Of a stretch of 34,780 nucleotides of DNA, positions 17,060-34,780 are shown piece by piece. Positions within the stretch are counted from its first letter, which is position 1; each line of letters opens with the position of its first letter. The DNA comes from an uncultured Candidatus Saccharibacteria bacterium (GTDB lineage: Bacteria; Patescibacteriota; Minisyncoccia; Phycocordibacterales; SBAW01): positions 1 through 34,780 of the forward strand of contig CAYHLQ010000002.1 of NCBI GenBank assembly GCA_964357485.1. The letters run 5' to 3'. Made by a program: the position numbers and the translations under genes. Under the pieces are notes generated by a model. The model was not told where the DNA came from, did not search any database, and saw only the letters and a program-made list of their open reading frames with translations.

Positions 17060-17065
17060 AGCGGG

Positions 17066-17614: not shown

Positions 17615-17619
17615 ATATG

Positions 17620-18237: not shown

Positions 18238-18311
18238 TTATATAAATAGTATACCCCGTGAGATGTCTAGGATGACTCGCTGTGTGTATAAGAACCTTTT
18301 ATTTAATGAAA

Positions 18312-19400
18312 CTAGCCCAAGTCCTGCAATCTCCTAAGCGCCAGGCCAACCGCCACGCTGAACTCCGGACCCGCTTCCTTGAGGATCGCCTCGAGAAACG
18401 CAGGCGCCTGCGTTTTGGCGAACGGGTCTGCAAGCCGGAGCTCGTTCTGCACCTTGCCCTGCATAAACTCCTTAAGGCCCTTGAGCGTCGCTCCCCCGCC
18501 GGTCAAGACCAGGGCGCTCAGGCTCTGGTTGTGCGCCTGCTCCCAGGCAGCCGCAGTGCGCGCGATCTCGGAGACTATTGGACCGAGCGATAGCTCGAGC
18601 GACTGCTTTATACTGTTCTCGGGCGTGCTTACAAGCCCAAACTTGCGCTTGCGTTCCTCGGCCTGCGCCACCGTAATGCCGAGCGCGCGTGAGGCCGCGA
18701 GCGTCAGGTCCTGGCTGCCGTGGTTGATGATGTGGCTCTCGCGTATAAGGCCGCGTTCGACGACATAAAATTTGGTGGTTGCCGCGCCCATGTCTACAAC
18801 CGCTACCGATGCCAGCCCGTGGTCAAGAGCGGCGCGCACCGAGGAAAACACCTCAATCTCAAAAAACGAGACGTTGAGCTGTGCATCGGCCGCCATCGAG
18901 CGGAACTTGGCTATTGTGTCGTTGTGTATGGCCACCAAGAGCACTTCTATCTTGCCGTCCTGGGTTGCGGCCGCCTTCCCGCCCGTGACAACAAACCAGT
19001 CCAGCAGCACCTCGTTTATAGGTACGGGGATGTATTTGCGCGCCTCTATAGGCATCACCTGCGCGAGCTGACTCTCAAGCGAGGCTTGCAGCTTGACCAG
19101 CGATATGAGCGACGACGCGTAGGGTATTGATATGGACGCGTCGTGAGTGGTGACATTTGCCTCACGGATGACATCCTTGAGCGCTTCTGATATCTTCTCA
19201 GCGGGCAGGGCTGTGGCACGACCTATCTCTTGGCCGGCATACGGGCCGAGCGCAATGGCGCCGTACGTCTCGAGTATCACGCGGCCGTGTTCGCGCCGGA
19301 GCTGCACCACCTTTATAGATGAGGTGCCTATGTCTATACCAAGCACGCTCTGCGTGGGTTTGGAGAATAGCGAAGAGAGAGACGAGAGAGAAAACGCCAT
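18312..19400 (-). CDS. pilM: actin-like ATPase PilM
   Basis: VLGIDIGTSSIKVVQL and AVVDMGAATTKF phosphate-binding motifs of the actin/FtsA-like fold. 362 aa. Confidence 0.9.
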   Translation of the reverse strand: MAFSLSSLSSLFSKPTQSVLGIDIGTSSIKVVQLRREHGRVILETYGAIALGPYAGQEIGRATALPAEKISEALKDVIREANVTTHDASISIPYASSLISLVKLQASLESQLAQVMPIEARKYIPVPINEVLLDWFVVTGGKAAATQDGKIEVLLVAIHNDTIAKFRSMAADAQLNVSFFEIEVFSSVRAALDHGLASVAVVDMGAATTKFYVVERGLIRESHIINHGSQDLTLAASRALGITVAQAEERKRKFGLVSTPENSIKQSLELSLGPIVSEIARTAAAWEQAHNQSLSALVLTGGGATLKGLKEFMQGKVQNELRLADPFAKTQAPAFLEAILKEAGPEFSVAVGLALRRLQDLG

Positions 19401-19421
19401 ACCTTCAAGTATATAGTATAT

Positions 19422-20024
19422 ATGTCATTCAAGTTTTTAATAAAACTCCTCGAGCTTATACTCCCGCCTCGGCGCACGCAAAGTCTAATCGAGCAGCTTT
19501 CGCTCACAGATTTGTTAGCCTTGCAGACAGATGAAGGCCTCCCCTACCAAGACGAGAGCGTGCGAGCGCTGGTGTGGGAGCTGAAATACTACGCAAACAG
19601 GTACGCCGCCGTGCTTGCCGGCGAGATTTTGGCCGAGGAGTTGCTGGCATTAGCCTCAGAGGAGCTGGGCCGGCTGCTTTTGGTACCGGTGCCCATGCAC
19701 AAAACTCGCCATAGCTTGCGCGGTCATAACCAGACCGAGCTGTTGTGCAAGGCGACGCTCAAGCGCCTGGGTGGCGCACTAGACTACGCCCCTGAGGCAC
19801 TCGCCCGCATACGCGCAACGCCCGAACAGCAGAAACTGTCGCGAGAGCAGAGGCTTGTAAACCTTACAAATTCGATGCGAGCCGACCCGGAAGTTGTACG
19901 CGGTCGCGCATGTATTGTAGTTGATGATGTAAAAACCACCGGCGCCACCTTGGCCGAGGCCAAGCGTGCGCTTTTAGCCGCTGGAGCATTTCGCGTACAC
20001 ACTATCGCACTAGCGCAGTCTTAG
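19422..20024 (+). CDS. comF: ComF-family phosphoribosyltransferase-fold competence protein (no N-terminal Cys zinc finger visible)
   Basis: PRTase motif IVVDDVKTTGATLAEA at the C-terminus. Size and context, divergent from pilM, also fit. Confidence 0.8.
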   Translation: MSFKFLIKLLELILPPRRTQSLIEQLSLTDLLALQTDEGLPYQDESVRALVWELKYYANRYAAVLAGEILAEELLALASEELGRLLLVPVPMHKTRHSLRGHNQTELLCKATLKRLGGALDYAPEALARIRATPEQQKLSREQRLVNLTNSMRADPEVVRGRACIVVDDVKTTGATLAEAKRALLAAGAFRVHTIALAQS

Positions 20025-20137: not shown

Positions 20138-20228
20138 GGAGAGGTGGCTGAGCGGCTGAAAGCAGGGGATTGCTAATCCCCCATACGGGGTAATATCCGT
20201 ATCGAGGGTTCGAATCCCTCCCTCTCCG
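20138..20228 (+). tRNA. tRNA-Ser (anticodon GCT), class II long variable arm
   Basis: GGAGAGG-TG-GCT..AGC-A-GGGGA-TTGCTAA-TCCCC, long arm ATACGG..CCGTAT, then GAGGG-TTCGAAT-CCCTC-CCTCTCC-G. Confidence 0.93.
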
Positions 20229-20258
20229 CAACGATAGTTTTAGAATCTACAGTGCAGG

Positions 20259-21374
20259 CTAAGCCTTTTTCGTTTCCTGCTCCATCGCCTCGCTCCACTG
20301 GTTGCCCACCGGTTGCCCAAAAGCGGTATGCATCGCCGTTTTTGGGTTCAACATGTCGATGGCCATTCGTAGTGCTGATGGCGCAACATGCGCGTATCGC
20401 ATGGTCGTAGAGATGCTGGAATGCCCGAGTAAAGCTTGTACTGCATGGAGCGGCGCACCCTTCATGGCCAACTGGGATGCGAATGTGTGCCGCAGGCTGT
20501 GCCAAGTAAACTTGCGCAGCCCCGCTTTGGAGCGTACCTCGTCTAACCGCCGGATGATGTACTGACTGTCGAAAGGGTTCCCCTTAGAGTCTGAGAACAC
20601 GTATCCGGTATCCTGCTTTCGCCTAAAGAGCACGCCATACACATCAATATCTATCGGAATGTGCCTTTCGCGGTTGCTCTTGGGCGACTCTAGTTTGTGA
20701 GTACGGTCGTTTAGTGAGTGCCGTACCGTGATTGTCCGGTTCTCCCAGTGGATAGATGACCACTGAAGGCCCCTGAGCTCGCCTTGGCGCATCCCCGTGC
20801 GCAGTGCGGTCAATATCATGTCCTGTATCACACCCCCTGCTTTTAAGGAGAGGAGTGCGCACTCATCGGGCGATAGGAAGCCCGTTGTGGGTGGCGGACA
20901 CTTTAATAGCGTAATCTTCGGTGGTAGTCCCTTAACCTCTAGCCATTCGTAGGCAGTCCTTATGCACTTACCCAGGACTGCAAGGCGGTTGTTTACTGTT
21001 TTCGGCTTTGTGCCTTGCTTAAGCGTGTAAGCTTTGTACTGCTCGACATGTTGGGTTGTAACCTTATCTAGCGACATCTTGCCGAAGAATGGTACTAGCG
21101 ACGAGTCGAGTATGTACCTCTTCATCCGTTGCTCTTGATGCTTGTTATTTGGCACCACGTAGTCGTCAAACCACTTTTCGGCGAATTGCGCGAAGGTGTA
21201 CTCTTGCACGGCCTCTATGGGCTCTATACGCTCGCCACGCGCGAGTTTCTGCCGCAGTGTGGCTTCGTAGGCTTTTGCTCCGGCTTGCGAGTTCTCTGGG
21301 CTACGCCTGCGATAGCGCACGTACTCGTGCCGGAAGTCTACCCACCATGATTTTTTTAGTCTTCTTGCTGTCAT
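20259..21374 (-). CDS. int: tyrosine recombinase / phage-type integrase
   Basis: Catalytic motifs TGMRQGELRGLQW (Arg I), WHSLRHTFAS (H-x-x-R) and LGHSSISTTMRYAH (His, Tyr). The N-terminal SAM-like domain is basic. Confidence 0.93.
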   Translation of the reverse strand: MTARRLKKSWWVDFRHEYVRYRRRSPENSQAGAKAYEATLRQKLARGERIEPIEAVQEYTFAQFAEKWFDDYVVPNNKHQEQRMKRYILDSSLVPFFGKMSLDKVTTQHVEQYKAYTLKQGTKPKTVNNRLAVLGKCIRTAYEWLEVKGLPPKITLLKCPPPTTGFLSPDECALLSLKAGGVIQDMILTALRTGMRQGELRGLQWSSIHWENRTITVRHSLNDRTHKLESPKSNRERHIPIDIDVYGVLFRRKQDTGYVFSDSKGNPFDSQYIIRRLDEVRSKAGLRKFTWHSLRHTFASQLAMKGAPLHAVQALLGHSSISTTMRYAHVAPSALRMAIDMLNPKTAMHTAFGQPVGNQWSEAMEQETKKA

Positions 21375-21648: not shown

Positions 21649-22407
21649 TTACTGGTTCGCCGATCTCCACCGATTTATATGGGGAGCATGTATGAGGCGG
21701 CCTAAATGCGGTAAGTTTTCATAGGATATAGAGCCGTTTTCAAACCAATCCTCGAGCAACTGTTCGAGCTCTTCTTCTGAGCAATGTTTTCTGATGCCTA
21801 CTACGCGGTAATATTCTTTTTCACCAAGGACGGGCCGCTCCTTCAGCTGCTCTTGGCAGCGATCAGAAAAGGTTTCAAGAAACCCCAGCACAAAGCTACT
21901 GGGGTGTTTCACTTTCAAAGGGTCGAGAATTATGTTTTTCTCCTTCAAAGAAGAGAAAAGTTTTTCGCCAGAAAAACCCTTATTACTTATCTCTATAAGA
22001 CTATTACTATTAGGTAAATTATCTTTACTAGATCGTGGTAAAGAATTTTTACCACCCTCAACAAGTTTCTTTACCGGATGATCTTTTACTTTTCCAAAGC
22101 GACTTTCCTTGACCTTTACTACTGACTCGTGCCAACGACTCGTTGTCCGCAGCCTGGTTTTGTCTACTGGATGGCGCTCGACGAGACCATCATCTATCAA
22201 CCGTTTAATGATATTTATTACCGTCTGCTTTGTAACGCTTAGCAAAGAGGCCATTGTTACTTTACTCATATAGCACCACCCATCTTCATTCTGAGATAAA
22301 AAATAGATCATATCTGCAATGCAATATGCGGTAATAGATATGCCGAGCCGCTTTCGCGGGCCGTGTAGGAATAAAGTATGGATTTTATCTATAAGTTCAT
22401 CAGACAT
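21649..22407 (-). CDS. winged-helix DNA-binding protein, possible replication/maintenance factor of the island
   Basis: MSKVTMASLLSVTKQTVINIIKRLIDDGLVER is a wHTH-like segment. It is the first gene of the int module. Start is taken at the ATG at 22407 (MSDELIDK); the ORF track begins at a TTG at 22413. Confidence 0.55.
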   Translation of the reverse strand: MSDELIDKIHTLFLHGPRKRLGISITAYCIADMIYFLSQNEDGWCYMSKVTMASLLSVTKQTVINIIKRLIDDGLVERHPVDKTRLRTTSRWHESVVKVKESRFGKVKDHPVKKLVEGGKNSLPRSSKDNLPNSNSLIEISNKGFSGEKLFSSLKEKNIILDPLKVKHPSSFVLGFLETFSDRCQEQLKERPVLGEKEYYRVVGIRKHCSEEELEQLLEDWFENGSISYENLPHLGRLIHAPHINRWRSANQ

Positions 22408-22410
22408 AAA

Positions 22411-22471
22411 CAAGTCCGCTCTCCGCTTGGCTGGTCATAGGTGAGAACCAGCCAAGTAGAAAACGGACTTG
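22411..22471 (-). promoter_or_regulatory. 61-nt leader hairpin ending 4 nt upstream of the rep-like start codon
   Basis: CAAGTCCG...CGGACTTG outer stem and CTTGGCTGGT...ACCAGCCAAG inner stem. A GGAGAG (SD-like) sits in the internal loop. Confidence 0.55.
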
Positions 22472-23880: not shown

Positions 23881-24235
23881 GTGGAATTCTATAGCCATAG
23901 TCGCCCTCCTGGGATTTGGTATATTTGCCTACCTACTGAGGCCTGTTTCAATACCGGCTGGAGAGGTATGGGCCTTGGATGAAATAGGAGACTCTGCTTT
24001 CAAGGAATATATGCTCAGTGTTCTCTGGCAGCGATGCCCGTTCTACAAAGATGGCGGGGCCGCCTACCGTGATTGCCTCTGGAAGGCCCGAGACAAAGCT
24101 AAGGCCGCTTATAGGGGCCAGGACAGTGCGGAGATAGAAAGCTACTGCCAAGACCTCGGAGGGCGCTTCGAGGGCCTCCTGGCGGGCGAAATAGCCATCT
24201 CTTGCGAAGCTTTCAGGTTCTCACGAGGTGGTTAG
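23873..24235 (+). CDS. signal-anchored small protein with four Cys, hypothetical
   Basis: MSKWNSIAIVALLGFGIFAYLL. Its ATG overlaps the previous stop (ATGAGTAA). The ORF track starts at 23840. Confidence 0.5.
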   Translation: MSKWNSIAIVALLGFGIFAYLLRPVSIPAGEVWALDEIGDSAFKEYMLSVLWQRCPFYKDGGAAYRDCLWKARDKAKAAYRGQDSAEIESYCQDLGGRFEGLLAGEIAISCEAFRFSRGG

Positions 24236-24918
24236 TCCCATAACTGCTCTTCCGAGTAAGCGATGAGGGTTTGCTCTATCTCTCTTGCGGTAGCCTTTTC
24301 AACGACCAAGTTACGGAGAATGGATGACGGCCGACTGCTCTTGCGGTGATTGCCGAAAATATAGTGCATGCGCGACACTGCCAGCAGCTTGTCCTTCGCG
24401 CTCATTTTGGCCAACTCCTTTTCTGTTATCGAATCCAGCAACATGTTGGTTATGCGAGTCGTTTTCTCCAAGGCCTCTTCCGCCTGTCCCTCTTGGGTCA
24501 CGGGATAGGCGGGTGGTGCGGTGGGTAGTAGGACTGGAGCTTTGACGGGTGTATCGAGGCACCACTTAAAGCGTTCGCTCCCCTCGATCACTTCTCGCAT
24601 GGCCGGAGTAACCTGATCGGGGTTGAGTTTGATATACCCGAGCACTAGTCGCACCATAGTCATCAAGCGGTAATAAAACTTCCTGTCGCCCGTCTCGCCT
24701 TGGGCTAGATGTATTCGCTCCAGAAACTCCCGGTAGTGGAGATTTGTGGCAGCTCGTTTCTCGATCACCTTACGCTTGTCGGGGGTGACGCGCCAGGCCG
24801 TACCGCCGGGTTTGGCATCGATAAACTGCTGGCAAAAGGCCAGGAAGGAAAGGTATTTGCTCTCCTCCCACTCGGACAGCTCCTTTCTGTTGGGCAGCCG
24901 GCCTAGGACATACTTCAT
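24232..24918 (-). CDS. hypothetical 228-aa protein, divergent from the helicase operon
   Basis: Long ORF with coding-like composition. It is convergent with the small-protein genes, overlapping them by 4 nt. No motif recognised. Confidence 0.6.
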   Translation of the reverse strand: MKYVLGRLPNRKELSEWEESKYLSFLAFCQQFIDAKPGGTAWRVTPDKRKVIEKRAATNLHYREFLERIHLAQGETGDRKFYYRLMTMVRLVLGYIKLNPDQVTPAMREVIEGSERFKWCLDTPVKAPVLLPTAPPAYPVTQEGQAEEALEKTTRITNMLLDSITEKELAKMSAKDKLLAVSRMHYIFGNHRKSSRPSSILRNLVVEKATAREIEQTLIAYSEEQLWD

Positions 24919-25180
24919 CTTCTTATCCTACGTTTTTATTGGATCTATTGGAATTATGATGTGGATTAGGCATCATAGTCGCTGAGGATAGTCGAACCGG
25001 CAAAAGGCCTTATTCCATAAGGCTCTCGCTTCCTGCCCTGACCTTCCTAGAAAGGGTTATCCAATACCCAATCGTTAGTATGCTTTTGGATTGGTTATTT
25101 AATTCTATTGGGGATTGGCCGCGCGACGGGCTGGAATGGACTTTCACAGTGAACCTGCACATGCCCTTGAATTGTGAAGA

Positions 25181-25186
25181 TATAAT
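25181..25186 (+). promoter_or_regulatory. possible -10 box TATAAT 32 nt upstream of the helicase ATG
   Basis: Perfect TATAAT. The nearest TTGAAT is only 8 nt upstream, so no canonical -35 is present. Confidence 0.3.
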
Positions 25187-25218
25187 GGTAGAACTAGCCT
25201 GTTCTGCATAAACATGAC

Positions 25219-28200
25219 ATGGAGAAAGATTTAGCCAATTACATTAAATACTGCTTAGGGTATGTAAGACTGACCCGCGAGCGTACGGTTGCTGCCCAGC
25301 AACGATATTCTGTTGAACTACCCAGTAAATTTTTCGAATTGGGTAGTTTGTTAAATGGAGATAGCGACGGCAAACTTGGCGAGCTTATCAAGCTTGAGAC
25401 TTTTTATAAGTACGATCCTAAGGAGGTGCCGGAGGACGAATTGGAACAGTATGAAGAAGAGAAAGCTTTTGCAAATAAAATTGAGGATATTTACAACAAG
25501 CATCGCAACGACCAATTCACAAAACAAGTCGTCTTTAATTTCGGGTATTTTGAGATAGAACTTCCTATCGAGACTAACGACACAATCGACCTTGAAGCCG
25601 AAGAAGACGAGGAATCAGTACCACCTAAGACTAAGATTGACCGCTATCCGCTCTTTGCCCTGCCGATACGCATTGAGAAAGAGATAACAAAAGCTGGTGT
25701 AGGACACTACTACATCTACTCGGTTGATCCTGATGTGCAGGTCAATATTGGCATGTTGGAGCCTATACTCGGAGCAGATTTATACTTTCAGCTTCTTGAG
25801 GAGATGGGCAAGTATGAGATGGACGGCAAGTTTAGTATGCCGATCCTTGACCTTAAACTCTTTACTGAAATATGGCGCAAGATTAAGGCCCAGTTGCGCC
25901 TTAAGGAAGCTTCTTTTGACGAAGATTCTTTTTCTCTAGAGGAAATAAAAATTGCCCTGAGTCCCAGAGCCAACTACTTCTTAGCTGAAGATCTTGCAAA
26001 GCTCTCTAAACTCTCGGAGGAGGAGCTTGGAGAAACTTCTCTTACAAGCTGGATAGACAATACCGACCTGACTATACAGGGAGAAACACCTCATGATAGC
26101 GAGCTATATTTCCCGTTCCCGTACGATAAGTACCAGCTGGCAACGCTATCATTGCTTGGCAATAAGGCAGCCATCATTCAAGGGCCGCCGGGTACCGGCA
26201 AATCGGAAACTATATCGAATATTCTTTGCCACTTGGCCGCCAATGGTAAACGCGTTCTCTTTGTAAGCCAAAAAGCTCAGGCCTTAAAGGTAGTAAAAGA
26301 CAAGCTCAAAAAGCTAGATGTAAAATATCTCTATGGGTACCTGCCAAATCCAAATTCTGCGCAGATTGGGGAGGACGATGAAGCTGATGGTATTGCGCCT
26401 CAGTTAAGTGGCTTGGGTGCCCATTTAGAGAAGTTGGGGTATGGTGCCCAACGAGACGGGTCTATAACGGGTCCGGCCGAACGAAAAGCAAAATACCAGG
26501 ATTCATTCGACAACCTTATCGCGGGCCAGCAAAGATACTACAAGCTACACCAAGAGCTGATAGGGCTTAAGGATTTTGACTTGGGCGTATCAGACCTCGA
26601 GTGCTTCACTTCAGCATTCTCGTCCGTTGCTTGGCGTGAAATTCGAGACACGAAGGCGGAGATTGAAATGCTAGGCAAATCTATAAAGAAGTATGAACGC
26701 ACCGATGAGAGGAAAGCACTTGATAAATTGTTCTCTTCTATAGACTTAAATGGAAAGACATACGCCGAATCTATTGGGTCTGTGAAAGACGATGTGGCAA
26801 AGACGGGTTATGATCGTCATTTCAATCTCTTCAGAAAAGTAAACAATGCAAGGCGTAATGTGCGCCTGGGTGGAGCTAGGGCAAAGCTGCCTCGTGAGAT
26901 AGTCGATTATGTAGACGGTATCCTCTCCGGTGATACCTCTCGCAGTGAAGCGGTAAAGTCGCTTGAATCACTACATACCCACTGTCTGTATTACGAAAAT
27001 AAGGTCAAGCTAAATGGCCTAGAAAAAAACCTAAAGTCTAGGCTATCCACTTGCGGCATCTCTAGTAAGGAGTTTGAGGCAATCGATGTGAAAGTCGAGT
27101 CTACTACTTCAGCGGACATGGATGGCGTTAAAGCCAACATGCTTCGCGTTCAGGAAATTAAGAAGGAGCTTAAAGAATTGACCACGGCCGAGAGTCTTAA
27201 CAAAGTAAGTGCAGCACTTAAGCGTACAGAAGCGGATCGTACGAAACAGATCTCCCTCTACATACAGAATATCGTTAACACCAATCTTCTTAGTAAGTGG
27301 ATGCGTGGGGTGGCAGTAAGACAAATTATCCAAAAACTTGCGCGTGCTTTTGGGAAGTCAAAACGAGCCTTTAAGACTTTCGACAACCTTCGCAAAGACC
27401 CGGATAATTTCAACGCCATCCTGGACCTTATTCCTATTTGGATTATGGAACTTGATGACGCTAGCCGCATAGTCCCACTCGAGGCAGGGATATTCGACTA
27501 TGTAATTCTTGATGAGGCTTCGCAGTGCAATGTAGCCTACACGCTGCCAGTTATGTATCGAGCTCAACGAGCGCTCTTTGTCGGAGATAGCGAGCAGATG
27601 CGCGATAGCACGATTATGTTCAAATCCAATCGCGTGTTCGATGAACTTGCACGACGATATGACATACCAGATGAGCGGCAGATAAAAGCGACTGGGAATG
27701 CCGTGCAGTCAGTCTTGGACATAGCAAAGAATCGCGGGTTTATGTATAAGACGCTTCATTATCACTACCGTTCCCCGATGGAACTTATAAACTTTAGCAA
27801 TAAGTATTTCTATAAGCCGAATGGCAAAGAGCTTATTCCGCTAAACAATAACTACCTTACCTATAAGGACACTAACCGGGTAATGGTTGTACATGAGGTT
27901 CAGTCGGACTGGAGCGAGGAAATATCAGATCATGTCAATGTAGCTGAAGCTAAATCCATATTGCAGCTCTTTGAAGAGTTGCGAGCAGACGAAAGGTACC
28001 AGGACAAGTCCATAGGCATTTTGTCGTTCTTCAACGCTCAAGCCACATTTATCCGCAAGTTATTCAATGATGCCGGCTACAAGGAAGAGGAGAACAACTA
28101 CAAAGTGAGCATTATTGAGGGTATCCAGGGCGACGAAAAAGATATCATTGTCTACTCTTTTGTAATCCGCAATCCGGCACAGAGGAATCGCTACATGCCT

Positions 28201-28743
28201 CTTACAGGCGAAGGTGGTGACATACGCGGAGATATAAACAAAGGCCGCGTCAATGTGGCGTTCTCTCGTGCCCGGCAACAAGTACACTGCTTTACCAGTA
28301 TCCCTCCGCAGGAGATGCCTGAGAAGATTTGGCTTAAGAAGTATCTAGAATATGCCGAGAAGCATGGCGAGGTTGCAATTAACTCAACCGAGCTGAAGCC
28401 TTTCGATTCATATTTCGAAGAGGAGTTTTATAATCTTATGAGTAAGAGTTTTAAGCGTGGTTACAGAATCCAAAATCAAGTAGAGAGCTGCGGGTTCAAA
28501 ATAGACTTTGTCATAAGTAATACAACAACAGGTAAGCGCTTAGCTATAGAGTGCGACGGCCCATGTCACTTCAAAGACGAGATAGACGAGGCCTATGGCA
28601 TCCATGTTGAGAGCGATGAGGAGCGTCAGCGCGTGTTAGAGGCGGCTGGATGGGAGTTCTGCCGTATCAAATATGCGGATTGGATCGACGAAAGTTTCGA
28701 CCGTGACATAGTAACAGAGACTATCGAGGACAAATTGAAATAA
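25219..28743 (+). CDS. Upf1-like SF1 helicase (DUF4011-like N-terminus, AAA_11/AAA_12 core) fused to a C-terminal Vsr/DUF559-type PD-(D/E)xK endonuclease
   Basis: Motif I GPPGTGKS (aa 322-329), motif II ILDEASQ (D765) and motif III VGDSEQM. Also HYHYRSP..INFSNKYFY, IIEGIQGDEKDIIVYS and NVAFSRARQ. The C-terminus reads KIDFVISNTTTGKRLAIECDGPCHF...EAAGWEFCRI. About 435 aa lie between motifs I and II. Confidence 0.9.
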   Translation: MEKDLANYIKYCLGYVRLTRERTVAAQQRYSVELPSKFFELGSLLNGDSDGKLGELIKLETFYKYDPKEVPEDELEQYEEEKAFANKIEDIYNKHRNDQFTKQVVFNFGYFEIELPIETNDTIDLEAEEDEESVPPKTKIDRYPLFALPIRIEKEITKAGVGHYYIYSVDPDVQVNIGMLEPILGADLYFQLLEEMGKYEMDGKFSMPILDLKLFTEIWRKIKAQLRLKEASFDEDSFSLEEIKIALSPRANYFLAEDLAKLSKLSEEELGETSLTSWIDNTDLTIQGETPHDSELYFPFPYDKYQLATLSLLGNKAAIIQGPPGTGKSETISNILCHLAANGKRVLFVSQKAQALKVVKDKLKKLDVKYLYGYLPNPNSAQIGEDDEADGIAPQLSGLGAHLEKLGYGAQRDGSITGPAERKAKYQDSFDNLIAGQQRYYKLHQELIGLKDFDLGVSDLECFTSAFSSVAWREIRDTKAEIEMLGKSIKKYERTDERKALDKLFSSIDLNGKTYAESIGSVKDDVAKTGYDRHFNLFRKVNNARRNVRLGGARAKLPREIVDYVDGILSGDTSRSEAVKSLESLHTHCLYYENKVKLNGLEKNLKSRLSTCGISSKEFEAIDVKVESTTSADMDGVKANMLRVQEIKKELKELTTAESLNKVSAALKRTEADRTKQISLYIQNIVNTNLLSKWMRGVAVRQIIQKLARAFGKSKRAFKTFDNLRKDPDNFNAILDLIPIWIMELDDASRIVPLEAGIFDYVILDEASQCNVAYTLPVMYRAQRALFVGDSEQMRDSTIMFKSNRVFDELARRYDIPDERQIKATGNAVQSVLDIAKNRGFMYKTLHYHYRSPMELINFSNKYFYKPNGKELIPLNNNYLTYKDTNRVMVVHEVQSDWSEEISDHVNVAEAKSILQLFEELRADERYQDKSIGILSFFNAQATFIRKLFNDAGYKEEENNYKVSIIEGIQGDEKDIIVYSFVIRNPAQRNRYMPLTGEGGDIRGDINKGRVNVAFSRARQQVHCFTSIPPQEMPEKIWLKKYLEYAEKHGEVAINSTELKPFDSYFEEEFYNLMSKSFKRGYRIQNQVESCGFKIDFVISNTTTGKRLAIECDGPCHFKDEIDEAYGIHVESDEERQRVLEAAGWEFCRIKYADWIDESFDRDIVTETIEDKLK

Positions 28744-28744
28744 T

Positions 28745-30292
28745 ATGGCCCACATAATCTCCAAAACGAACTTTCTCGGCTTCCTCAGCTGTCCGAAAAA
28801 TGTATGGCTTAAGTTCAACAAACCGGAGGTGCTGGAAAAGTTTCATCTATCTGAATTCGAGAAGCATATCCTTGAGCAGGGCAACGAGGTGGAGTCCTAC
28901 GCCCGTAATCTTTTTCCAGGCGGTGTAGAAGTAGTAGCCACTGGTGATGATGCCCTACAAGAGACGGTGCGTTTTATGGCTAGCAAGGTACCGACTATAT
29001 TCCAGGCAACCTTCTTGGTGGATAACTTTATTGCCAAGAACGACATGCTGTCATATGACACGGAGCAGAACCTATGGAATTTATACGAAGTAAAGGGCAC
29101 TAACTCTCTAAAGGAAGATAGTGGCGAAGGTGGTCGAGACCATATAGACGACCTTGCCTTTCAAGTGGCGGTATTAAATCGTGCCAAGATTCCTCTCGGT
29201 CGCTATTTCGTCATCCACCTAAACAAAGAATATGTTCGTTTAGGCGACTTGGATCTTAACGCACTTTTTACTATTGATGATGTCACAGAAAAAGTCGCAG
29301 CCCGCTTGCCTGAAATAGAAGTGCAAATGGCTTTGGCCCAGGATTACTTAAATAAGGAAAAAGAGCCTGTAGGAGGATGCGAGTGCGTTTACAAGAGCCG
29401 CAAGAAGCACTGCACAAGCTTTCCATATATCCACCCGCATGTACCCGACTACTCAGTGCATGACATAAGCCGAATCCATAAGACTAAGCTCGATTTGCTG
29501 GTCGAGAGGAGCATCTTTGATCTTAATGATGTGCCCGAAGATTTTAAATTGAGTCAAAACCAAAAGAACCAAGTGCTAGCCCATCGGCGACAAAAACCGA
29601 TGATAGATCTTGAAAGTATCAAGCGGGAGATGGAATCTATGAAGTTCCCTCTATACTTCTTTGACTATGAGGCATTTGGGCCAGCTATCCCCGTGTTTAA
29701 CGGCTATGGTCCCTACAAACGCATACCTTTTCAGTTCTCTCTGCACATACTCCACGAGCCCGGTGGCACTTTAGAACATGTCGAGTTCCTGCACGACAGT
29801 CTCTCGGATCCTTCTGAAAAGGTAGGACAACTCCTCAAAAAACATATGGCAACTCCGGGTACCGTAGTGGCCTGGCATAAAAGCTTCGAGGAAGGTGTTA
29901 ATAGAGAGATAGCTGCACGGTTGCCTGAATATGCAACGTCATTCGAGCGAATCAATGGCATGATGTTTGATCTTAAAGACATATTTCAGGATCAACATTA
30001 TGTACATCATGGATTTAAGGGTAGTGCTTCACTTAAGAAGGTCTTACCTACAATTGCTTCTGAACTACGATATGACGGACTTGGGATACAGGATGGAGGT
30101 ACTGCCGCAGACGCTTGGTGGAAAATGGTCTCACCGGCGACCTCTGCAAAAGAAAGTGAGCAAATTGCCAAAGACCTTAAGATTTATTGCGGCCTAGACA
30201 CATTTGCAATGTATGCAATTTGGCACCATTTGCAGGAAACTGTGGGGCACGAAAGTATAGGCCCAAGACTTTCATACCCACCTCTTGTGTGA
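28745..30292 (+). CDS. Cas4/RecB-like PD-(D/E)xK nuclease with 4-Cys cluster fused to a DEDDy 3'-5' exonuclease-like domain (DUF2779-like architecture)
   Basis: C16 plus C212-x-C214-x8-C223; D100...E115-V-K117; Q140. The C-terminal half has FFD307-Y-E309, WHKSFEE and Y481-CGL-D485. The start lies 1 nt after the helicase stop. Confidence 0.82.
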   Translation: MAHIISKTNFLGFLSCPKNVWLKFNKPEVLEKFHLSEFEKHILEQGNEVESYARNLFPGGVEVVATGDDALQETVRFMASKVPTIFQATFLVDNFIAKNDMLSYDTEQNLWNLYEVKGTNSLKEDSGEGGRDHIDDLAFQVAVLNRAKIPLGRYFVIHLNKEYVRLGDLDLNALFTIDDVTEKVAARLPEIEVQMALAQDYLNKEKEPVGGCECVYKSRKKHCTSFPYIHPHVPDYSVHDISRIHKTKLDLLVERSIFDLNDVPEDFKLSQNQKNQVLAHRRQKPMIDLESIKREMESMKFPLYFFDYEAFGPAIPVFNGYGPYKRIPFQFSLHILHEPGGTLEHVEFLHDSLSDPSEKVGQLLKKHMATPGTVVAWHKSFEEGVNREIAARLPEYATSFERINGMMFDLKDIFQDQHYVHHGFKGSASLKKVLPTIASELRYDGLGIQDGGTAADAWWKMVSPATSAKESEQIAKDLKIYCGLDTFAMYAIWHHLQETVGHESIGPRLSYPPLV

Positions 30293-30310
30293 GGATAAAT
30301 TCTACGCGAT

Positions 30311-31102
30311 ATGCCAACTCAAGAAGTACAGATCAATAAATGCATCTATTGTGGCGGGGTTGGACAAACTGACGAACATATAATGCCTTTTGCGCTGGCG
30401 GGCAAAAGTATTTTACGGAAAGCTAGTTGTGAGACGTGTCGGGATATTACCTCGCGATGCGAGGATAATCCTTTGCGGCAAAATTGGGCAGTGGCTCGTG
30501 CGGTATTGGACTATCCCTCTAGAAAGAGAGATTTCGATAAAGAGGTTTTTCCTCTTGAGGTTGTCTTAAAAGACGGCACTAAAACTGTACTTCAATTAAA
30601 ACGAAGTGAGACTGTAGGCTTCGCACCCTTCATGGAATATCCTCTTCCGGCTTTCTTTACTCCGAGTAGTAACTATAAGTCGGGTGTTGTTCTCTCTGGC
30701 CATACGCTGGTAGGATTCGGGCCCGACATAAAAATTCTAATCGAAAAGTACGGGATTAAGGAAATTAAATATAAGGTCACACACAAGAGTAATTACTTCG
30801 AAATAATGGTGGCGAAAATAGCCTATTGCGCTGCGGTCGCGGCTTGGGGCCTCGATGCTCTTCAGGAAAAGTTCGTGCTCCCAGCAATTCTTGGCGCCAA
30901 AGATGACGTAGGTTACTGGATGGGGTGCGACCCCGAAGGCAAAATAATACCGATGATAGGAAAACTAAACGCGGCAAATAGTATTAAACTCGGGGTCTGG
31001 CAGAGAGCAGATGATGAAAATAAATACATAATCGCGAGAATAAAGTTCTTCTCTCCATCCGATGCTCCTGAATATATTGTAGTCGTTGGCACTCTTAAAT
31101 AG
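30311..31102 (+). CDS. HNH-like (beta-beta-alpha-Me, zinc-ribbon) protein with ~200-aa uncharacterised C-terminal domain
   Basis: C11-IY-C14-GG...DEH23-IMPFALAG...C40-ET-C43. It lies 18 nt after the previous stop, on the same strand. Confidence 0.7.
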   Translation: MPTQEVQINKCIYCGGVGQTDEHIMPFALAGKSILRKASCETCRDITSRCEDNPLRQNWAVARAVLDYPSRKRDFDKEVFPLEVVLKDGTKTVLQLKRSETVGFAPFMEYPLPAFFTPSSNYKSGVVLSGHTLVGFGPDIKILIEKYGIKEIKYKVTHKSNYFEIMVAKIAYCAAVAAWGLDALQEKFVLPAILGAKDDVGYWMGCDPEGKIIPMIGKLNAANSIKLGVWQRADDENKYIIARIKFFSPSDAPEYIVVVGTLK

Positions 31103-31209
31103 AATTCTTGTTTCCCCGGTGAAACTTCAGTTTTCCTTACCGTAATTTTTTGGTGTTTAGGTAACTTAAACCGCACAAACCCCAACCGATGGTCGGCTTC
31201 CCGACACGC

Positions 31210-31232
31210 AAAAACCACCCGCTAAGGGTGGT
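31210..31232 (-). terminator. intrinsic terminator of the copper operon
   Basis: On the minus strand, ACCACCC-TTAGC-GGGTGGT followed by TTTTT. It lies 45 nt after the stop at 31277. Confidence 0.75.
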
Positions 31233-31276
31233 TGGTGCGAGGCTCTATCACTTTACCGTTCTGCTCTTTGGTAGAT

Positions 31277-31693
31277 TTAATACGAGATTGCTATTTCATC
31301 TCCATCGCGCATGACGTATTCGCCCAACTCGCTGCTTGCCTTGCCGTTGACGGTCATAGTAGCCCCCGAGGGGAATTCTTTGTTCCAGGCACTGAAGAAG
31401 TTTTCAAGCCGTAAGTCATCCTCGGTTACCTGTCCGCTAAACTCCATGTGGATGAGGCGGTCTTCATGCGTGTGTATTGGATTGTGCACCTTGCCAAGCC
31501 CTACGTCGGTTGGCACTTCCACAACCTTGCCCCCTTCGGTAATGGCAAGCTTTGCGTGCCAATGCAGGCCATTTTGCGCTAGTACGGTGGATGCGGGCAT
31601 TTCACTACCTTGTTGTGTTGCCGCAACCAAAGAGCCGCCGATGAGCAGTATGAGTACGCCGACTACTACGCCAGCAATCGTCAGTTTGTTCAT
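31277..31693 (-). CDS. signal-anchored/secreted protein with HWH and HTHE His motifs, putative metal-binding
   Basis: N-terminal TM/signal segment IAGVVVGVLILLIGGSLVAA, then LHWHAKL and NPIHTHEDRLIHME. It is the last gene of the cop operon. Confidence 0.65.
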   Translation of the reverse strand: MNKLTIAGVVVGVLILLIGGSLVAATQQGSEMPASTVLAQNGLHWHAKLAITEGGKVVEVPTDVGLGKVHNPIHTHEDRLIHMEFSGQVTEDDLRLENFFSAWNKEFPSGATMTVNGKASSELGEYVMRDGDEIAISY

Positions 31694-31698
31694 AGTAG

Positions 31699-32094
31699 TT
31701 AGCGGTTATACCAACTCTTCTGCCACTGCTGCATCTGACTAATCTCGCTTGTCTGGGCCGATATGATGGCCTTAGCCATATCCTTTATTTCTTGATGCTT
31801 GGCGTTCTGTAGGGCTGCCTGTGCCATAGAGACCGCACCCTGGTGGTGCATTATCATCCCCGAGAGAAACGCCTGGTCAAAGGCATCGCCAGTTTTGCCC
31901 TGGAGCCCTGCCATCATGTCGTCCATGGCGCCTCCCATGCCGCCACCCATGTCGTGGTTGCCCATCATCATGCCGCCTTGCATCATATGCTCGCCAGCCT
32001 CTGGCGCTTGGCTGCCACGCACCAGGTAACCGCCGCCAAAGCCGACAATGAGTACCAAGAGTCCGATAATCACCAAATTTGTATTTTTTTCCAT
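31699..32094 (-). CDS. DUF305-family protein with Met/Gly/His-rich linker
   Basis: FDQAFLSGMIMHHQGAVSMAQ...HQEIKDMAKAIISAQTSEISQMQQW is the DUF305 pattern. It is preceded by EHMMQGGMMMGNHDMGGGMGGAMDDMM. Confidence 0.82.
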   Translation of the reverse strand: MEKNTNLVIIGLLVLIVGFGGGYLVRGSQAPEAGEHMMQGGMMMGNHDMGGGMGGAMDDMMAGLQGKTGDAFDQAFLSGMIMHHQGAVSMAQAALQNAKHQEIKDMAKAIISAQTSEISQMQQWQKSWYNR

Positions 32095-32123
32095 TGTTTA
32101 GTTAGAGAACGAGTAATTGCTGC

Positions 32124-32489
32124 CTAAGCTATCTGCGGCTCTTTCCTATGCAATATGCCTTGCGAGAACAGCTCTTGTAAGAGCGTGGGCCGTTTAGGTA
32201 TCCGCTCGCGTTGCCGATATACCCCATACTGCTTGGTACTTGCATCTAAAAGGTTGACGCTGCTCAACACCGCAAGAGCCAGAGCAAAGAGTGCGACAAG
32301 CTCAGCCGCTATGGCTGCAAAAGAGGATTGCCAGTGCGTTAGGTGCTCTAGTGGGGCTATGCATGCCGAGGCCGAGGCTGAGAAGGGGCAGCCCGCGTGC
32401 TCCATAGGGGCGAGAATAACTATGTACAAACCGAATACCGCAGCAACTATAAAGGCAGTCAGTACGATTGATGTGTAGAGTCTAGTCAT
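32124..32489 (-). CDS. two-TM membrane protein with Cys/His motif (MEHAGCPF...ACIAPLEHLTH), hypothetical
   Basis: 121-aa ORF whose ATG overlaps the copB stop (ATGA), so it is translationally coupled. Confidence 0.6.
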   Translation of the reverse strand: MTRLYTSIVLTAFIVAAVFGLYIVILAPMEHAGCPFSASASACIAPLEHLTHWQSSFAAIAAELVALFALALAVLSSVNLLDASTKQYGVYRQRERIPKRPTLLQELFSQGILHRKEPQIA

Positions 32490-34399
32490 AGAGTGTTGCG
32501 GCGCAGCAGAGCTGCATTAAACGCTACTATCACAGTAGAGAGCGACATGAATACTGCGGCCACGGCAGGCTGAAGCATGATGCCCCACGCAGCCAATGCG
32601 CCTGCGGCAACCGGGAGAGCGATGATGTTGTACCCGCTTGCCCAAAAGAGGTTCTGTATCATCTTGGAGTAGGTGAGGCGCGAGAGTTTTATTATCTTGG
32701 GGATGTCGCGTGGGTCATTTTTGACGAGTATAATTCCGGCCGACTCGATTGCGACGTTCGTTCCTGCGCCGATTGCGATTCCTAGGTCAGCTTGAGTAAG
32801 AGCCGGAGCATCATTAACCCCATCGCCGACCATCGCCACCTTCTTGCCCTGAGACTGGAGAAGCTTTACTTTTTGCGACTTTTCTTCCGGGCGCACGCGG
32901 GCAAAGTACTCGTCTATACCAAGCTCCTTTGCTACCTCTTTTGCCACCTCCTCAGAGTCGCCGGTAATCATGGCGATTGAGACACCCATAGTGCGCAGGG
33001 CTTCTACCGCTTCCTTTGCCTCGGGGCGTATCGTGTCGGCCAACTTAATTGCACCGAGCGACTTTCCGTCTACCTCAACCACAATGTCTGTGCCGCCGCG
33101 ATGTCCAACAAAAACCTTTGCGCCATCTACCATCGCTTCAGCACCAATGCCTGCGAGTCGCTTAAACTGCTGGGCAGTCGAAACAGAGAGGCCGCGCTTG
33201 TGCGCTTCGGCCACAATCGCTTTGCCAATCGGATGTTCGGACTGCTTCTCCACGGCTGCAGCTGCCACAATGGCTTCGTCCGAGGCGGAGACTACCGAGA
33301 ACTTGCCCTCAGTCAGCGTTCCTGTCTTATCAAAAAGTACAGTTGTGATGTTGCGTGCCGCCTCAAGCGCGATACGGCGTTTTACGAAAAAGCCGTTCTT
33401 GGAAGCCATAGTGGTCGAGATAGAGGCAACAAGCGGAATAGCGAGTCCCAGAGCATGGGGACAGGTAATTACCAAGACTGCCACAAGACGCTCGATTGCA
33501 AAACCAAAGCTCTCGCCGACAGCGAGCCAGGCAGCCAACGTGAGACCTCCTGCAACTACTGCGAGTATCGTGAGATAGAAAGCGGCCCGGTCAGAAAGCA
33601 ACTGCAGGCGCGATTTAGAACTCTCGGCCTCGGCCACCAAGCGCATAACTCCAGCCAAAAAGGTCTCGGCTCCTAGGCGCTCTATGCGTATATGCAAACT
33701 GCCGTCGCCGTTGATTGACCCAGCTATAACCTCTGCGTCTGTAGTCTTGTGCACCGGCTTTGACTCGCCGGTAATAAGAGACTCGTCGAGCTCGGAGTCG
33801 CCTTCGATGATTATCCCGTCTGCAGGTACTTTGCCTCCGGGGCGTACCAGTACAATGTCGCCCTTTATAAGCTCGGCAATAGAGACCATGACCGACTTGC
33901 CGTCACGGATTACCTCGGCCTTGTCCGGTAAGAGCTTGGCAAGCTCGCTCAGTGCGCCTTTTGCACTTTGCACCGCACGCATCTCGACGTAGTGCCCAAT
34001 GAGCATCACTGCGATAAGCGTAGAGAGCTCCCAGTACAAAGACATGCCTTCGCCGGAGATAGTGACCCAAACGCTATAGAGGTAGGCCGCAGATATGGCC
34101 AGCGCGATAAGCGTCATCATCCCGGGGAGCCTATCTTTTATCTCGCTCCACGCGCCTTTAAGGAACACTAGTCCTCCGTAAAAGAAAACAATGCTCCCAA
34201 GAATTAGCTGGAGGTATGTCGAGCCGGGGAAGGACGGGGCTGTCCATCCAAAAAAAGCTTGCGGAAGGTCGGAGTATAGGATGATAGGCACGGTAAGACC
34301 AAGTGCGACCCAGAACTTCGTTAAAAAGTCCTCGGTGTGGTGTCCCGCGTGCTTGTCATGGCCTTGTTCGCTATGGTTGTGCTCGTGGGAGTGTTCCAT
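32486..34399 (-). CDS. copB: copper-translocating P1B-type ATPase, CopB-like (CPH motif, His-rich N-terminus, no CxxC HMA domain)
   Basis: MEHSHEHNHSEQGHDKHAGHH, TGES, TM motif ITCPHALGLAIP, DKTGTLT, MITGD and GDGVNDAPAL. Confidence 0.93.
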   Translation of the reverse strand: MEHSHEHNHSEQGHDKHAGHHTEDFLTKFWVALGLTVPIILYSDLPQAFFGWTAPSFPGSTYLQLILGSIVFFYGGLVFLKGAWSEIKDRLPGMMTLIALAISAAYLYSVWVTISGEGMSLYWELSTLIAVMLIGHYVEMRAVQSAKGALSELAKLLPDKAEVIRDGKSVMVSIAELIKGDIVLVRPGGKVPADGIIIEGDSELDESLITGESKPVHKTTDAEVIAGSINGDGSLHIRIERLGAETFLAGVMRLVAEAESSKSRLQLLSDRAAFYLTILAVVAGGLTLAAWLAVGESFGFAIERLVAVLVITCPHALGLAIPLVASISTTMASKNGFFVKRRIALEAARNITTVLFDKTGTLTEGKFSVVSASDEAIVAAAAVEKQSEHPIGKAIVAEAHKRGLSVSTAQQFKRLAGIGAEAMVDGAKVFVGHRGGTDIVVEVDGKSLGAIKLADTIRPEAKEAVEALRTMGVSIAMITGDSEEVAKEVAKELGIDEYFARVRPEEKSQKVKLLQSQGKKVAMVGDGVNDAPALTQADLGIAIGAGTNVAIESAGIILVKNDPRDIPKIIKLSRLTYSKMIQNLFWASGYNIIALPVAAGALAAWGIMLQPAVAAVFMSLSTVIVAFNAALLRRNTL

Positions 34400-34400
34400 A

Positions 34401-34673
34401 TTACTTTTTCTTTTGAGCTAGCTTATAGACCTTAAGAATTTCGGCTACGGCTTTTTGCTCTTTGCCGCCTTTTATCTGCTGCAGCACATGGGTAGAGAGG
34501 TGGTTTTCAAGTATCAAGTCCTCAACCCCCGACAGTGCTTCTTTTATTGCGCTCGTCTGGGTAATAATGTCCACGCAATACTTTTCCTCGTCCACCATCT
34601 TTGCCAAACCCTTAAGCTGGCCTTGTACGATGCTCAGCCGTCTCACTGCTTTCTTTTTTAAGTCCGCTCTCAT
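34401..34673 (-). CDS. csoR: CsoR/RcnR-family metal-sensing repressor
   Basis: RRLSIVQGQLKGLAKMVDEEKYCVDIITQTSAIKEAL...ENHLSTH. The start is set at the ATG at 34673 (MRADLKKK), or alternatively 34682. The ORF extension to 34709 runs through the promoter. Confidence 0.85.
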   Translation of the reverse strand: MRADLKKKAVRRLSIVQGQLKGLAKMVDEEKYCVDIITQTSAIKEALSGVEDLILENHLSTHVLQQIKGGKEQKAVAEILKVYKLAQKKK

Positions 34674-34680
34674 TATTTCC

Positions 34681-34709
34681 ATAATACCCCCCGGGGGTAT
34701 TAGTGTCAA
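34681..34709 (-). promoter_or_regulatory. sigma70-type promoter TTGACA-17nt-TATTAT with embedded CsoR-type operator ATACCCCC-C-GGGGGTAT
   Basis: On the minus strand the -35 is at 34704-34709 and the -10 at 34681-34686. The palindrome at 34684-34700 fills the spacer and overlaps the -10. The ATG at 34673 lies 7 nt after the -10. Confidence 0.75.
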
Positions 34710-34780
34710 ATACAGATGTGTGCCACAATGGAGGTATTACTAGCTTTTCGTACACATCTATGGAAAATACTCGTTTGTCT

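Follow-up and report, generated by a model that had tools for sequence, protein, structure and literature searches.

A probable two-gene helicase-nuclease module beside an independent HNH-like gene on a tRNA-Ser island of an uncultured Saccharibacteria bacterium

Several described systems join a helicase to one or more nucleases, and we compared them with a locus of three adjacent genes, here called g1, g2 and g3, in a 34,780-nt stretch of DNA from an uncultured Candidatus Saccharibacteria bacterium (assembly GCA_964357485.1, contig CAYHLQ010000002.1, positions 1 to 34,780; hereafter the window). Hhe (PADLOC PDLC02194, NCBIfam NF042953) is a DUF4011 helicase-endonuclease with a profile of ~1800–1900 positions and is entered as a single gene in the defence-system table. 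PADLOC labels PDC-S37 'S', for single gene, and the NCBIfam model of the anti-phage protein ProA likewise describes one protein; literature searches returned no source paper for ProA and no text on PDC-S37. Dna2 combines an iron-sulphur (Fe-S) Cas4-like PD-(D/E)xK nuclease with a Upf1-like helicase of superfamily 1B (SF1B). In the CoCoNuT study, Upf1-like helicases are typically followed by nuclease effectors or fused to them, Vsr being among these, and type III-B fuses Vsr to the CnuH helicase in association with the McrB-like CnuB and the McrC-like CnuC (PMC11090510). In Hachiman, the Cas4-like nuclease HamA and the helicase HamB act as a nuclease-helicase defence complex on DNA (PMC12278908). 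For the DUF2779 family, to which g2 belongs, an architecture of two nucleases, Cas4-like and DEDD(y), was inferred earlier: the family was assigned computationally to the DEDDy/DnaQ-like exonucleases (PMC3985635), and family-level HHpred supports a Cas4-like nuclease, with MrfB as the nearest solved relative of the DEDD domain (PMC13621843). Neither of these two papers mentions a pairing of DUF2779 with helicase-nucleases.

The original prediction took g1, g2 and g3 together for one candidate undescribed defence system. Its coordinates were exact: three co-directional open reading frames (ORFs; Table 1) are separated by gaps of 1 nt (28744) and 18 nt (30293–30310). With slightly better than even confidence, we read the locus as a two-gene helicase-nuclease module made up of g1 and g2, probably cargo for anti-phage or anti-plasmid defence, followed by an independent g3. 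From their sequences, g1 appears to be a shorter relative of the ProA/PDC-S37/Hhe helicase-nucleases with a different N-terminus, and g2 a facultative accessory of g1-type and other helicases, while g3 is the occupant of a variable slot just after g2. On this reading, the three genes are two separate units that abut by chance on a low-GC cargo segment of a tRNA-Ser island.

Three sets of loci were compared, in which ORFs were called mechanically and "no partner" means none inside the flank examined. The g3-centred set, collected with an alignment of closer homologues as the query, comprised 49 loci from diverse bacterial and archaeal taxa with flanks of up to 10 kb; the g2-centred set comprised 80 metagenomic DUF2779 loci; and the g1-centred set comprised 13 distinct contexts, namely the window and 12 others. 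Homologues of g1 or g2 were found within 10 kb in none of the 49 g3 loci, including those of the five closest g3 relatives in the scan (48–58% identity). The locus of P0004, the closest g3 relative on a long contig (65% identity), likewise had no helicase or DUF2779 gene nearby. In the other direction, g3 homologues were absent from all 80 g2 loci and from all 12 other g1 contexts. Clustering the neighbours in the g3 loci revealed no recurrent partner, the commonest Pfam family occurring in 3 of 149 neighbours. The trio had been proposed with the proviso that a lack of synteny in other genomes would make the adjacency a matter of chance, and for g3 this lack is what we observed (0/49, 0/80 and 0/12). 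The suggestion that the trio or its pairs might co-occur elsewhere fared better for one pair, as g1 with g2 recurs in 4 of 13 g1 contexts, but outside the window g3 accompanied them in none of the loci examined.

A sister contig, L130, whose g1 is 99% identical, shows the third gene exchanged as a cassette, and here the negative result matters. The contig is collinear with the window over 23960–30277 at 92% identity and over 31110–34780 at 96% identity, but window positions 30278–31109, which are exactly g3, are replaced there by 1.3 kb (6956–8267) carrying an unrelated 419-aa gene on the minus strand. This ORF has a GC fraction of 0.454, low as in the module, and a very weak TIR-like match (CAP12-PCTIR_TIR, E = 0.039); PADLOC and PHROG searches gave it no match. 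Because it lies on the opposite strand, it cannot be an operonic effector. We rejected the three-gene system on synteny, that is, on the three locus sets together with this exchange. A variant with interchangeable third effectors was set aside on the strand of the TIR-like gene and its lack of a PADLOC or PHROG match. That three nuclease-like genes lie closely packed on an island is no evidence that they form one system.

The pairing of g1 with g2 was examined from both sides. Among the 13 g1 contexts, four contain a DUF2779 gene, two another Cas4-like nuclease and one RmuC, and six are without a nuclease partner. The DUF2779 gene lies directly downstream on the same strand in the window, in L130/L131 (g1 99% identical), in L136 (82%) and in L090 (66%). 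In L136, g2 is 92% identical and begins 1 nt after g1. In L090, g2 overlaps g1 and is 41% identical, against 66% for g1, so the adjacency outlasts sequence divergence. Where other Cas4-like nucleases follow g1, they are a PDDEXK_1+RNase_H_2 protein in L139/L140 (g1 68%) and a PDDEXK_1 protein in L141 (67%), both of which match PADLOC Cas4 models. In L137/L138 (9544–13266), RmuC stands in place of DUF2779; downstream of it come a gene for an OLD-family ATPase (PADLOC Old, E = 1e-22) and small ORFs, an arrangement that may be another multi-gene set around a g1-type helicase.

Starting from g2, 9 of the 43 DUF2779 loci that have at least 3 kb of upstream sequence contained an SF1 helicase that resembles g1 and has a C-terminal nuclease region also like that of g1, mostly at position −1 and on the same strand; the g3 loci, used as the control, had 0/49 (Fisher p = 0.013). 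With the exception of L090, the partners in these nine loci were ProA/PDC-S37-like proteins of ~1520–1640 aa. The L065 partner scored 942 bits to PDC-S37 and 894 to ProA, and the L087 partner 1183 bits to ProA, both under the cut-off of 1500; across the ~1600-aa helicase neighbours of DUF2779 genes, scores to ProA ranged from 139 to 1183 bits. DUF4011 was detected in two helicases adjoining other DUF2779 genes. Further motors also occur beside the family: DUF2779 is at −1 to SNF2 helicases of 1236–1239 aa in L054, L056 and L086, and L105 has a truncated SNF2 copy. In L053 the gene at −1 to DUF2779 encodes a Type ISP/IIG enzyme, and in L092 and L095 such an enzyme lies within four genes. The g1-g2 pair is recurrent but facultative, and g1 would be its autonomous core, because about half of its orthologues (the six contexts without a nuclease partner) stand alone.

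As originally predicted, g1 is a Upf1-like SF1 helicase with a C-terminal Vsr/DUF559-type nuclease. Pfam assigns it AAA_11/AAA_12 (SF1, Upf1-like) and a C-terminal MTES_1575/DUF559 domain at aa 1055–1158, and a profile built from 26 orthologues matched IGHMBP2, Upf1/Nam7, Sen1 and Dna2 in the PDB, which identifies g1 as a Upf1-like SF1B helicase. The Walker A motif GPPGTGKS occupies aa 322–329 (nt 26182–26205) and the Walker B residues DE aa 765–766 (nt 27511–27516), with an insertion of ~400 aa between the two. In the family alignment, G322–G325, D765/E766, E1111, D1113 and H1117 are invariant, and T326–S329, including K328, are nearly so. DUF4011 (PF13195), which had been expected in g1, was not detected at E <= 0.1. 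The first 300 residues matched nothing in Pfam, PHROGs or PADLOC, and they contain many invariant columns, for example F108, G109, Y110, E112, E114 and Y143-P144-L145-F146. We collected 688 homologues at E <= 1e-30, of which the best 120 are nearly all full length; family members are ~1170–1200 aa long and 55–82% identical over 1174 aa (P0233–P0352). Orthologues come mostly from Patescibacteria, with others in archaea (Pacearchaeota, Promethearchaeota) and in the present, higher-GC genome. High conservation over such distant hosts implies what was probably a recent and wide horizontal transfer.

g2 belongs clearly to the DUF2779/UU173 family (PF11074, including MMSYN1_0389), another expectation that held: DUF2779 matches aa 304–429 at E = 1e-38, with 132.9 bits against a gathering threshold of 23.3 and over the whole profile (1–126 of 126). 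The predicted fusion of a Cas4-like nuclease with four cysteines to a DEDDy exonuclease-like domain agrees with conserved motifs, with the fold search and with earlier work (PMC3985635, PMC13621843). In an alignment of 32 homologues, the nuclease residues D100, E115 and K117 and the cysteines C212, C214 and C223 are invariant, and C16 is nearly invariant (at least 90%); the four cysteines form a predicted Fe-S cluster. The N-terminal half thus carries the features of a putative Cas4/EXO5-type nuclease, a D...ExK triad with one N-terminal and three C-terminal cysteines. Likewise invariant in the 32 homologues are D307, E309, D409, Y481 and D485, with a Yx3D motif III, so that the C-terminal half has the four acidic residues, the Yx3D motif and the RNase H-like fold of DEDDy/DnaQ-like enzymes. 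A search of PDB sequence profiles with the g2 alignment found nothing, and a fold search was therefore needed. The AlphaFold model (pLDDT 87.6) was searched with Foldseek, which matched the N-terminal half to EXO5 (7lw7, E = 6.7e-4, probability 1.00), Cas4 (4r5q, probability 1.00), MGME1 and AddB, and the C-terminal half to RNase T and Maelstrom (probability 0.5–0.99). The PADLOC Cas4 models did not match g2; sequence profiles miss its Cas4 likeness. All four Fe-S cysteines are present in g2, whereas the Mycoplasma protein has only two.

By profile, the nearest described relatives of g1 are single-gene or single-protein entries. PADLOC matched g1 to PDC-S37 (E = 1.2e-73), Hhe (E = 7e-36) and MkoA/MkoC, and NCBIfam matched it to ProA (E = 9e-71) and Hhe (E = 1e-45). 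With ProA and PDC-S37 it shares the second RecA-like helicase domain and the C-terminal Vsr/MTES_1575 nuclease, and ~1600-aa proteins resembling those families also lie directly upstream of DUF2779 genes (L065, L087). The profiles are 1550–1903 positions long, compared with 1174 aa in g1, and they leave the N-terminal 300 aa and the long insertion of g1 uncovered; for PDC-S37 (PDLC05009, 1550 positions), the best g1 stretch covers profile positions 929–1326 only, and the 942 bits of L065 are the score of a bona fide member. Unlike these entries, the window locus has a DUF2779 partner. Hhe, like g1, has an SF1 helicase and a C-terminal Vsr/DUF559-type endonuclease in one polypeptide, but g1 is shorter at ~1174 aa, lacks DUF4011 and aligns over its C-terminal 430 aa. 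We do not count g1 as a member of Hhe or ProA, because its scores are under the curated cut-offs and DUF4011 is missing. g1 thus appears to be a relative, not a member, of the ProA and Hhe families and probably stands outside PDC-S37 as well, with the likeness to all three confined to its C-terminal half. The resemblance to Hhe and Mokosh noted in the original prediction was therefore borne out as profile matches, but the Hhe cut-off was not reached, and the MkoA/MkoC matches are limited to the RecA2 region of g1 (aa 754–1027), with no PLD domain in g1, g2 or g3.

Systems of two or more components show other partial likenesses. Hachiman, like g1-g2, pairs a helicase with an effector nuclease of the Cas4-type PD-(D/E)xK fold. 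HamB is a helicase of superfamily 2 (SF2) and HamA a DUF1837 protein; g1 is SF1, has a nuclease of its own, and is joined by a g2 that carries an extra DEDDy exonuclease. No PADLOC Hachiman model matched g1, g2 or g3 at E <= 0.1. CoCoNuT CnuH/CnuE and related operons of a Upf1-like helicase and a nuclease have in common with g1 an SF1 helicase of that type with an insertion, helical in CoCoNuT, and a fused Vsr-like nuclease. CoCoNuT systems are predicted to target RNA, however, and their architecture of CnuE with a winged helix-turn-helix (wHTH) and an effector is not present in the window locus, where the partner is DUF2779; the ORFs of 20–34.8 kb include no McrB/McrC (CnuB/CnuC) genes. Among Dna2, EXO5, AddAB and MrfAB, the likeness is one of fold, the N-terminal half of g2 resembling EXO5, MGME1 and AddB and its C-terminal half the DEDD exonucleases. 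Here, the activities are split over two genes, two nuclease domains are added and the pair is carried on a mobile island, and no sequence-level orthology to g1-g2 was found for any of the four.

The third gene encodes a protein of another kind. The core of its family is invariant, CxxC...EH...CxxC...E...R, including C11, C14, E22, H23, C40, C43 and E51. In the AlphaFold model (pLDDT 95.4, pTM 0.92), E22-H23 lie at the end of strand 20–23 and C40xxC43 at the start of helix 41–58, giving the strand-strand-helix order of a beta-beta-alpha-metal finger. Of the predicted HNH-like finger, the CxxC...EH...CxxC pattern therefore stands, but the HNH call itself is weak: the score of g3 to HNH_5 (PF14279), 19.4 bits (E = 1e-3), is below the gathering score of 27.5, while about half of the g3 homologues have a precomputed PF14279 match. 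The match to IscB-type HNH domains among PDB profiles is also weak (E = 0.044). After the second CxxC, another residue stands where Asn is usual, leaving the invariant E51 as the sole candidate ligand. Foldseek with g3 against PDB and BFVD returned no structural relative and no HNH proteins (best E 0.1, TM < 0.2), consistent with the earlier view that the ~200-aa remainder is a domain of no known type. PADLOC gave no match to g3, and PHROGs none to g2 or g3. It was also observed that the catalytic residues named beforehand for g1, g2 and g3 are all invariant or nearly so in the family alignments, and that neither g2 nor g3 matches any PADLOC model.

An exhaustive profile search placed g3 in a very large family, with 5589 representative clusters at E <= 1e-3, of which 1994 remain at E <= 1e-30. 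Among the 150 matches listed, nearly all are 250–290 aa long and aligned end to end, which is the signature of an autonomous gene. g3 is an independent, swappable cassette outside the conserved module. Our most plausible guess is a modification-dependent or otherwise regulated nuclease, because no methyltransferase adjoins g3. Family members (P0001–P0112, P0353–P0495; ~255–285 aa) occur in bacteria and archaea and are apparently uncharacterised.

If the g1-g2 pair acts as proposed, g1 would engage foreign or aberrant DNA, translocate 5'->3' and unwind it, and its Vsr-like domain would nick or cut the DNA. Where present, g2 would then degrade the displaced strands, 5'->3' with its Fe-S nuclease and 3'->5' with its DEDDy exonuclease. 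Such an arrangement may be likened to a split Dna2, or to a nuclease-helicase machine of the AddAB or Hachiman type. We infer the physical interaction of g1 with g2, as well as their substrates and defence role. A defence or mobile role is favoured because of the island setting and the profile matches of g1.

Several observations weigh against a defence module of g1 and g2. The g1 orthologues are conserved to a degree unusually high for defence genes (75% mean column identity in the family alignment A4). A scan of viral contigs for g1 relatives returned none, and tblastn of plasmids with g1 found only distant relatives at <33% identity, annotated as DUF4011 or DUF3320. The scores to defence families fall far from their cut-offs, with 238.9 bits against 1500 for ProA (NF058533; g1 aa 697–1159 to profile 1245–1692 of 1903) and 155.6 bits against 2000 for Hhe (NF042953; g1 aa 732–1159 to profile 1255–1669 of 1797), and g2 is without any PADLOC match. 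A g1-like neighbour is present in only ~20% of DUF2779 loci, and a PD-(D/E)xK neighbour accompanies only about half of the g1 orthologues. Many DUF2779 genes sit in housekeeping contexts (sigma-70, DnaG, thioredoxin), and the DUF2779 gene of the minimal Mycoplasma JCVI-syn3.0 is quasi-essential (PMC13621843); both fit a role in repair. The samples are also modest (13 g1 contexts) and non-random, with long contigs and best hits favoured.

These points bear on three other readings of the locus. That all three genes form one obligate defence system, in which a single motor would be combined with up to four nuclease modules, is suggested by their tight co-directional packing with no terminator-like site in the gaps, their equally low GC and the nuclease- or helicase-like character of all three proteins. 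The slot after g2 could in principle hold interchangeable effectors, namely the HNH-like protein of the window, the weakly TIR-like 419-aa protein of L130 and a 260-aa protein of no known type in L139. We consider this reading highly improbable, given g3 loci free of g1 and g2 (0/49 within 10 kb, and none near P0004), the absence of g3 from 80 DUF2779 loci and 12 other g1 contexts, its exchange in L130 for an opposite-strand gene between flanks 92–96% identical, and a family of ~2000 or more clusters of stand-alone proteins with no recurrent neighbour. It is also unlikely, though far less so, that g1 makes up a complete system by itself, as a single gene of the Hhe/ProA/PDC-S37 type, with g2 and g3 as independent defence or selfish nucleases co-clustered in island slots. 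The six partnerless contexts, the single-gene or single-protein status of the three families and the lack of a g1-like neighbour at most DUF2779 genes agree with it, as does the variety of the gene that follows g1 (DUF2779, PDDEXK_1, RmuC, Fic or none). When a gene does follow, however, it is nearly always a same-strand nuclease of the PD-(D/E)xK/Cas4 family, at a gap of 1–90 nt or overlapping, which makes the pairing more specific than generic island clustering. The partners of DUF2779 moreover include two or more separate SF1 lineages, among them the g1 family and ProA-like helicases, as well as SNF2 helicases, usually at −1 and on the same strand, and the pair is kept while g2 diverges to 41% identity in L090.

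A serious rival, to which we nevertheless give a low probability, makes g1-g2 a machine for DNA repair, recombination or element maintenance, split Dna2-like or MrfAB/AddAB-like, that would serve the host or the element by processing stalled forks or DNA ends. It is serious because of the fold relatives of g2, the quasi-essential Mycoplasma DUF2779 gene and the recA genes near two g1 orthologues. Dna2 is among the PDB matches of g1, and the best fold matches of g2 are the repair nucleases EXO5 and MGME1, plus AddB. MrfB works with the helicase MrfA. Among solved structures, HHpred places MrfB nearest to the DEDD domain of the DUF2779 family (PMC13621843). The quasi-essentiality in JCVI-syn3.0 (PMC13621843), the housekeeping neighbourhoods in some lineages, two g1 orthologues within a few kb of recA and the high conservation of g1 point the same way. 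In the window, however, the pair belongs to the low-GC cargo of an island with an integrase rather than to the core genes, and the profiles that g1 matches best are those of defence families. Orthologues of g1 recur in serine-recombinase elements, near restriction-modification, OLD-family ATPase, Fic and toxin-antitoxin genes, and their patchy, transfer-like spread over bacteria and archaea is typical of defence or selfish genes.

Should the g1-DUF2779 pair prove to be a working unit, DUF2779, a widespread family present even in minimal Mycoplasma, would gain a role and a partner. The Hhe/ProA/PDC-S37 group would gain a shorter two-gene branch, abundant in Patescibacteria and DPANN-type genomes, whose defence systems are poorly charted, and a bacterial "split Dna2" analogue would be open to biochemistry. 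The two-gene module is a variant within the helicase-nuclease kind, and the two-nuclease architecture of DUF2779 was already described. A bolder and more speculative proposal, more probably wrong than right as it stands, is that DUF2779 is a general, hitherto undescribed accessory of DNA translocases, a dual-polarity exonuclease that three or more motor lineages (the g1 family of 1.2 kaa, the ProA/PDC-S37-like helicase-nucleases of 1.6 kaa and SNF2 helicases) would recruit to form mobile two-gene defence systems that would shred unwound foreign DNA, the window locus being one of them. As a separate part of that proposal, the g3 family (~2000 or more clusters at 50% identity) would be stand-alone HNH-like nucleases of a new fold and possibly a single-gene class of restriction or defence.

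The coordinates of the genes, their domains and the main island features are collected in Table 1. The placement of the locus in an AT-richer block on a tRNA-Ser island with an integrase, as originally described, was confirmed: GC fractions are 0.449 for g1, 0.454 for g2 and 0.443 for g3, compared with 0.562 for the backbone (1–20000) and 0.505–0.524 for flanking island DNA, and a tyrosine integrase adjoins tRNA-Ser(GCT). A terminator scan found no terminator-like site in the g1/g2 or g2/g3 gap, which makes co-transcription, with read-through into g3, plausible in the present strain; g3 is probably co-transcribed with g1-g2 there. The same scan found one terminator-like hairpin within the g3 coding sequence (30387–30408). 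An attR site, as a copy of the tRNA-Ser end, was sought within the window; nothing convincing was found, which leaves the island without a defined right edge. Most small island ORFs had no match in PHROGs.

Table 1 Features of the g1-g2-g3 locus and its island in the window
Feature	Position	Strand	Basis or description
g1	25219..28743	+	ORF, 1174 aa; helicase-nuclease, core of module
g1 N-terminal region, aa 1–300	25219..26118	+	Conserved in family; not DUF4011
g1 Upf1-like SF1B helicase core, ~aa 301–1040	26119..28338	+	AAA_11/AAA_12, PDB profile matches, invariant motifs
g1 Vsr-fold endonuclease domain (MTES_1575/DUF559), aa 1055–1158	28381..28692	+	MTES_1575 E = 1.3e-16; DUF559 E = 1.7e-4
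g2	28745..30292	+	ORF, 515 aa; DUF2779 protein
g2 Cas4/EXO5-like PD-(D/E)xK nuclease, N-terminal	28745..29464	+	Conserved motifs, Foldseek
g2 DEDDy 3'-5' exonuclease-like domain, C-terminal (Pfam DUF2779 core)	29654..30244	+	Pfam, conserved motifs, Foldseek
g3	30311..31102	+	ORF, 263 aa; HNH_5-like protein
g3 zinc finger, beta-beta-alpha (HNH-like), N-terminal	30332..30490	+	Invariant residues, model, weak profile matches
g3 C-terminal region, ~200 aa	30491..31102	+	Confidently modelled; without PDB/BFVD structural relative
tRNA-Ser(GCT)	20138..20229	+	Presumed island integration site
Tyrosine integrase of island	20259..21374	-	Phage_integrase E = 3.7e-32
wHTH protein, island backbone gene, replication-initiator-like (O-like/DnaD-like, phage/plasmid)	21649..22413	-	MarR_2/HTH_36; phrog_428 E = 2.2e-10

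Besides the wHTH protein, the island encodes a 228-aa ORF (24232–24918, minus strand) whose counterpart in L130 has a very weak Phage_rep_O match; from these two genes, the element may be replicating or satellite-like. A second tRNA gene, tRNA-Met(CAT), lies toward the left end of the window (1247–1321, minus strand). An imperfect direct repeat of 15 nt flanks the cassette that takes the place of g3 in L130 (TTTCCCGGTGAAACT at 6966–6980 and TTCCCCGGTGGAACT at 8270–8284); of this repeat the window retains the right-hand copy only (~31111–31125). The repeat could mark a recombination hotspot or have arisen by chance.

Elsewhere, low-GC, metagenome-derived genomes are the source of the closest relatives of all three genes. 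Large serine recombinases, HTH_17, Toprim or ParB-methylase genes are frequent around g1 orthologues, which also adjoin restriction-modification genes, Fic, OLD-family ATPase and PhdYeFM antitoxin genes. Two partnerless orthologues have recA within ~1–5 kb, at 16071–17129 in L134 (g1 65% identical) and at 2991–4073 in L145 (58%); this proximity could hint at a role in repair, or it could reflect synteny within lineages or a hotspot for integration. Nine DUF2779 loci (L057, L059, L089, L094, L096, L109, L110, L118 and L126) have a DsbA/thioredoxin-like gene at +1 or −1, and most of these have sigma-70, DnaG or other common neighbours close by. This neighbourhood is conserved and of housekeeping type, quite different from the island of the window.

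Finally, copper and heavy-metal genes (P-type ATPase, CsoR-type repressor, DUF305) adjoin g1-type or ProA-like helicase modules in several unrelated loci. They lie at 31699–34709 in the window, 14111–14473 in L137/L138, 33–2600 in L065, 9232–13573 in L145 and 18892–20703 in L087, and the ATPase fragment of L137/L138 is 82% identical to the window ATPase. This suggests a common family of mobile elements with metal-resistance and helicase-nuclease cargo and a variable region in between.

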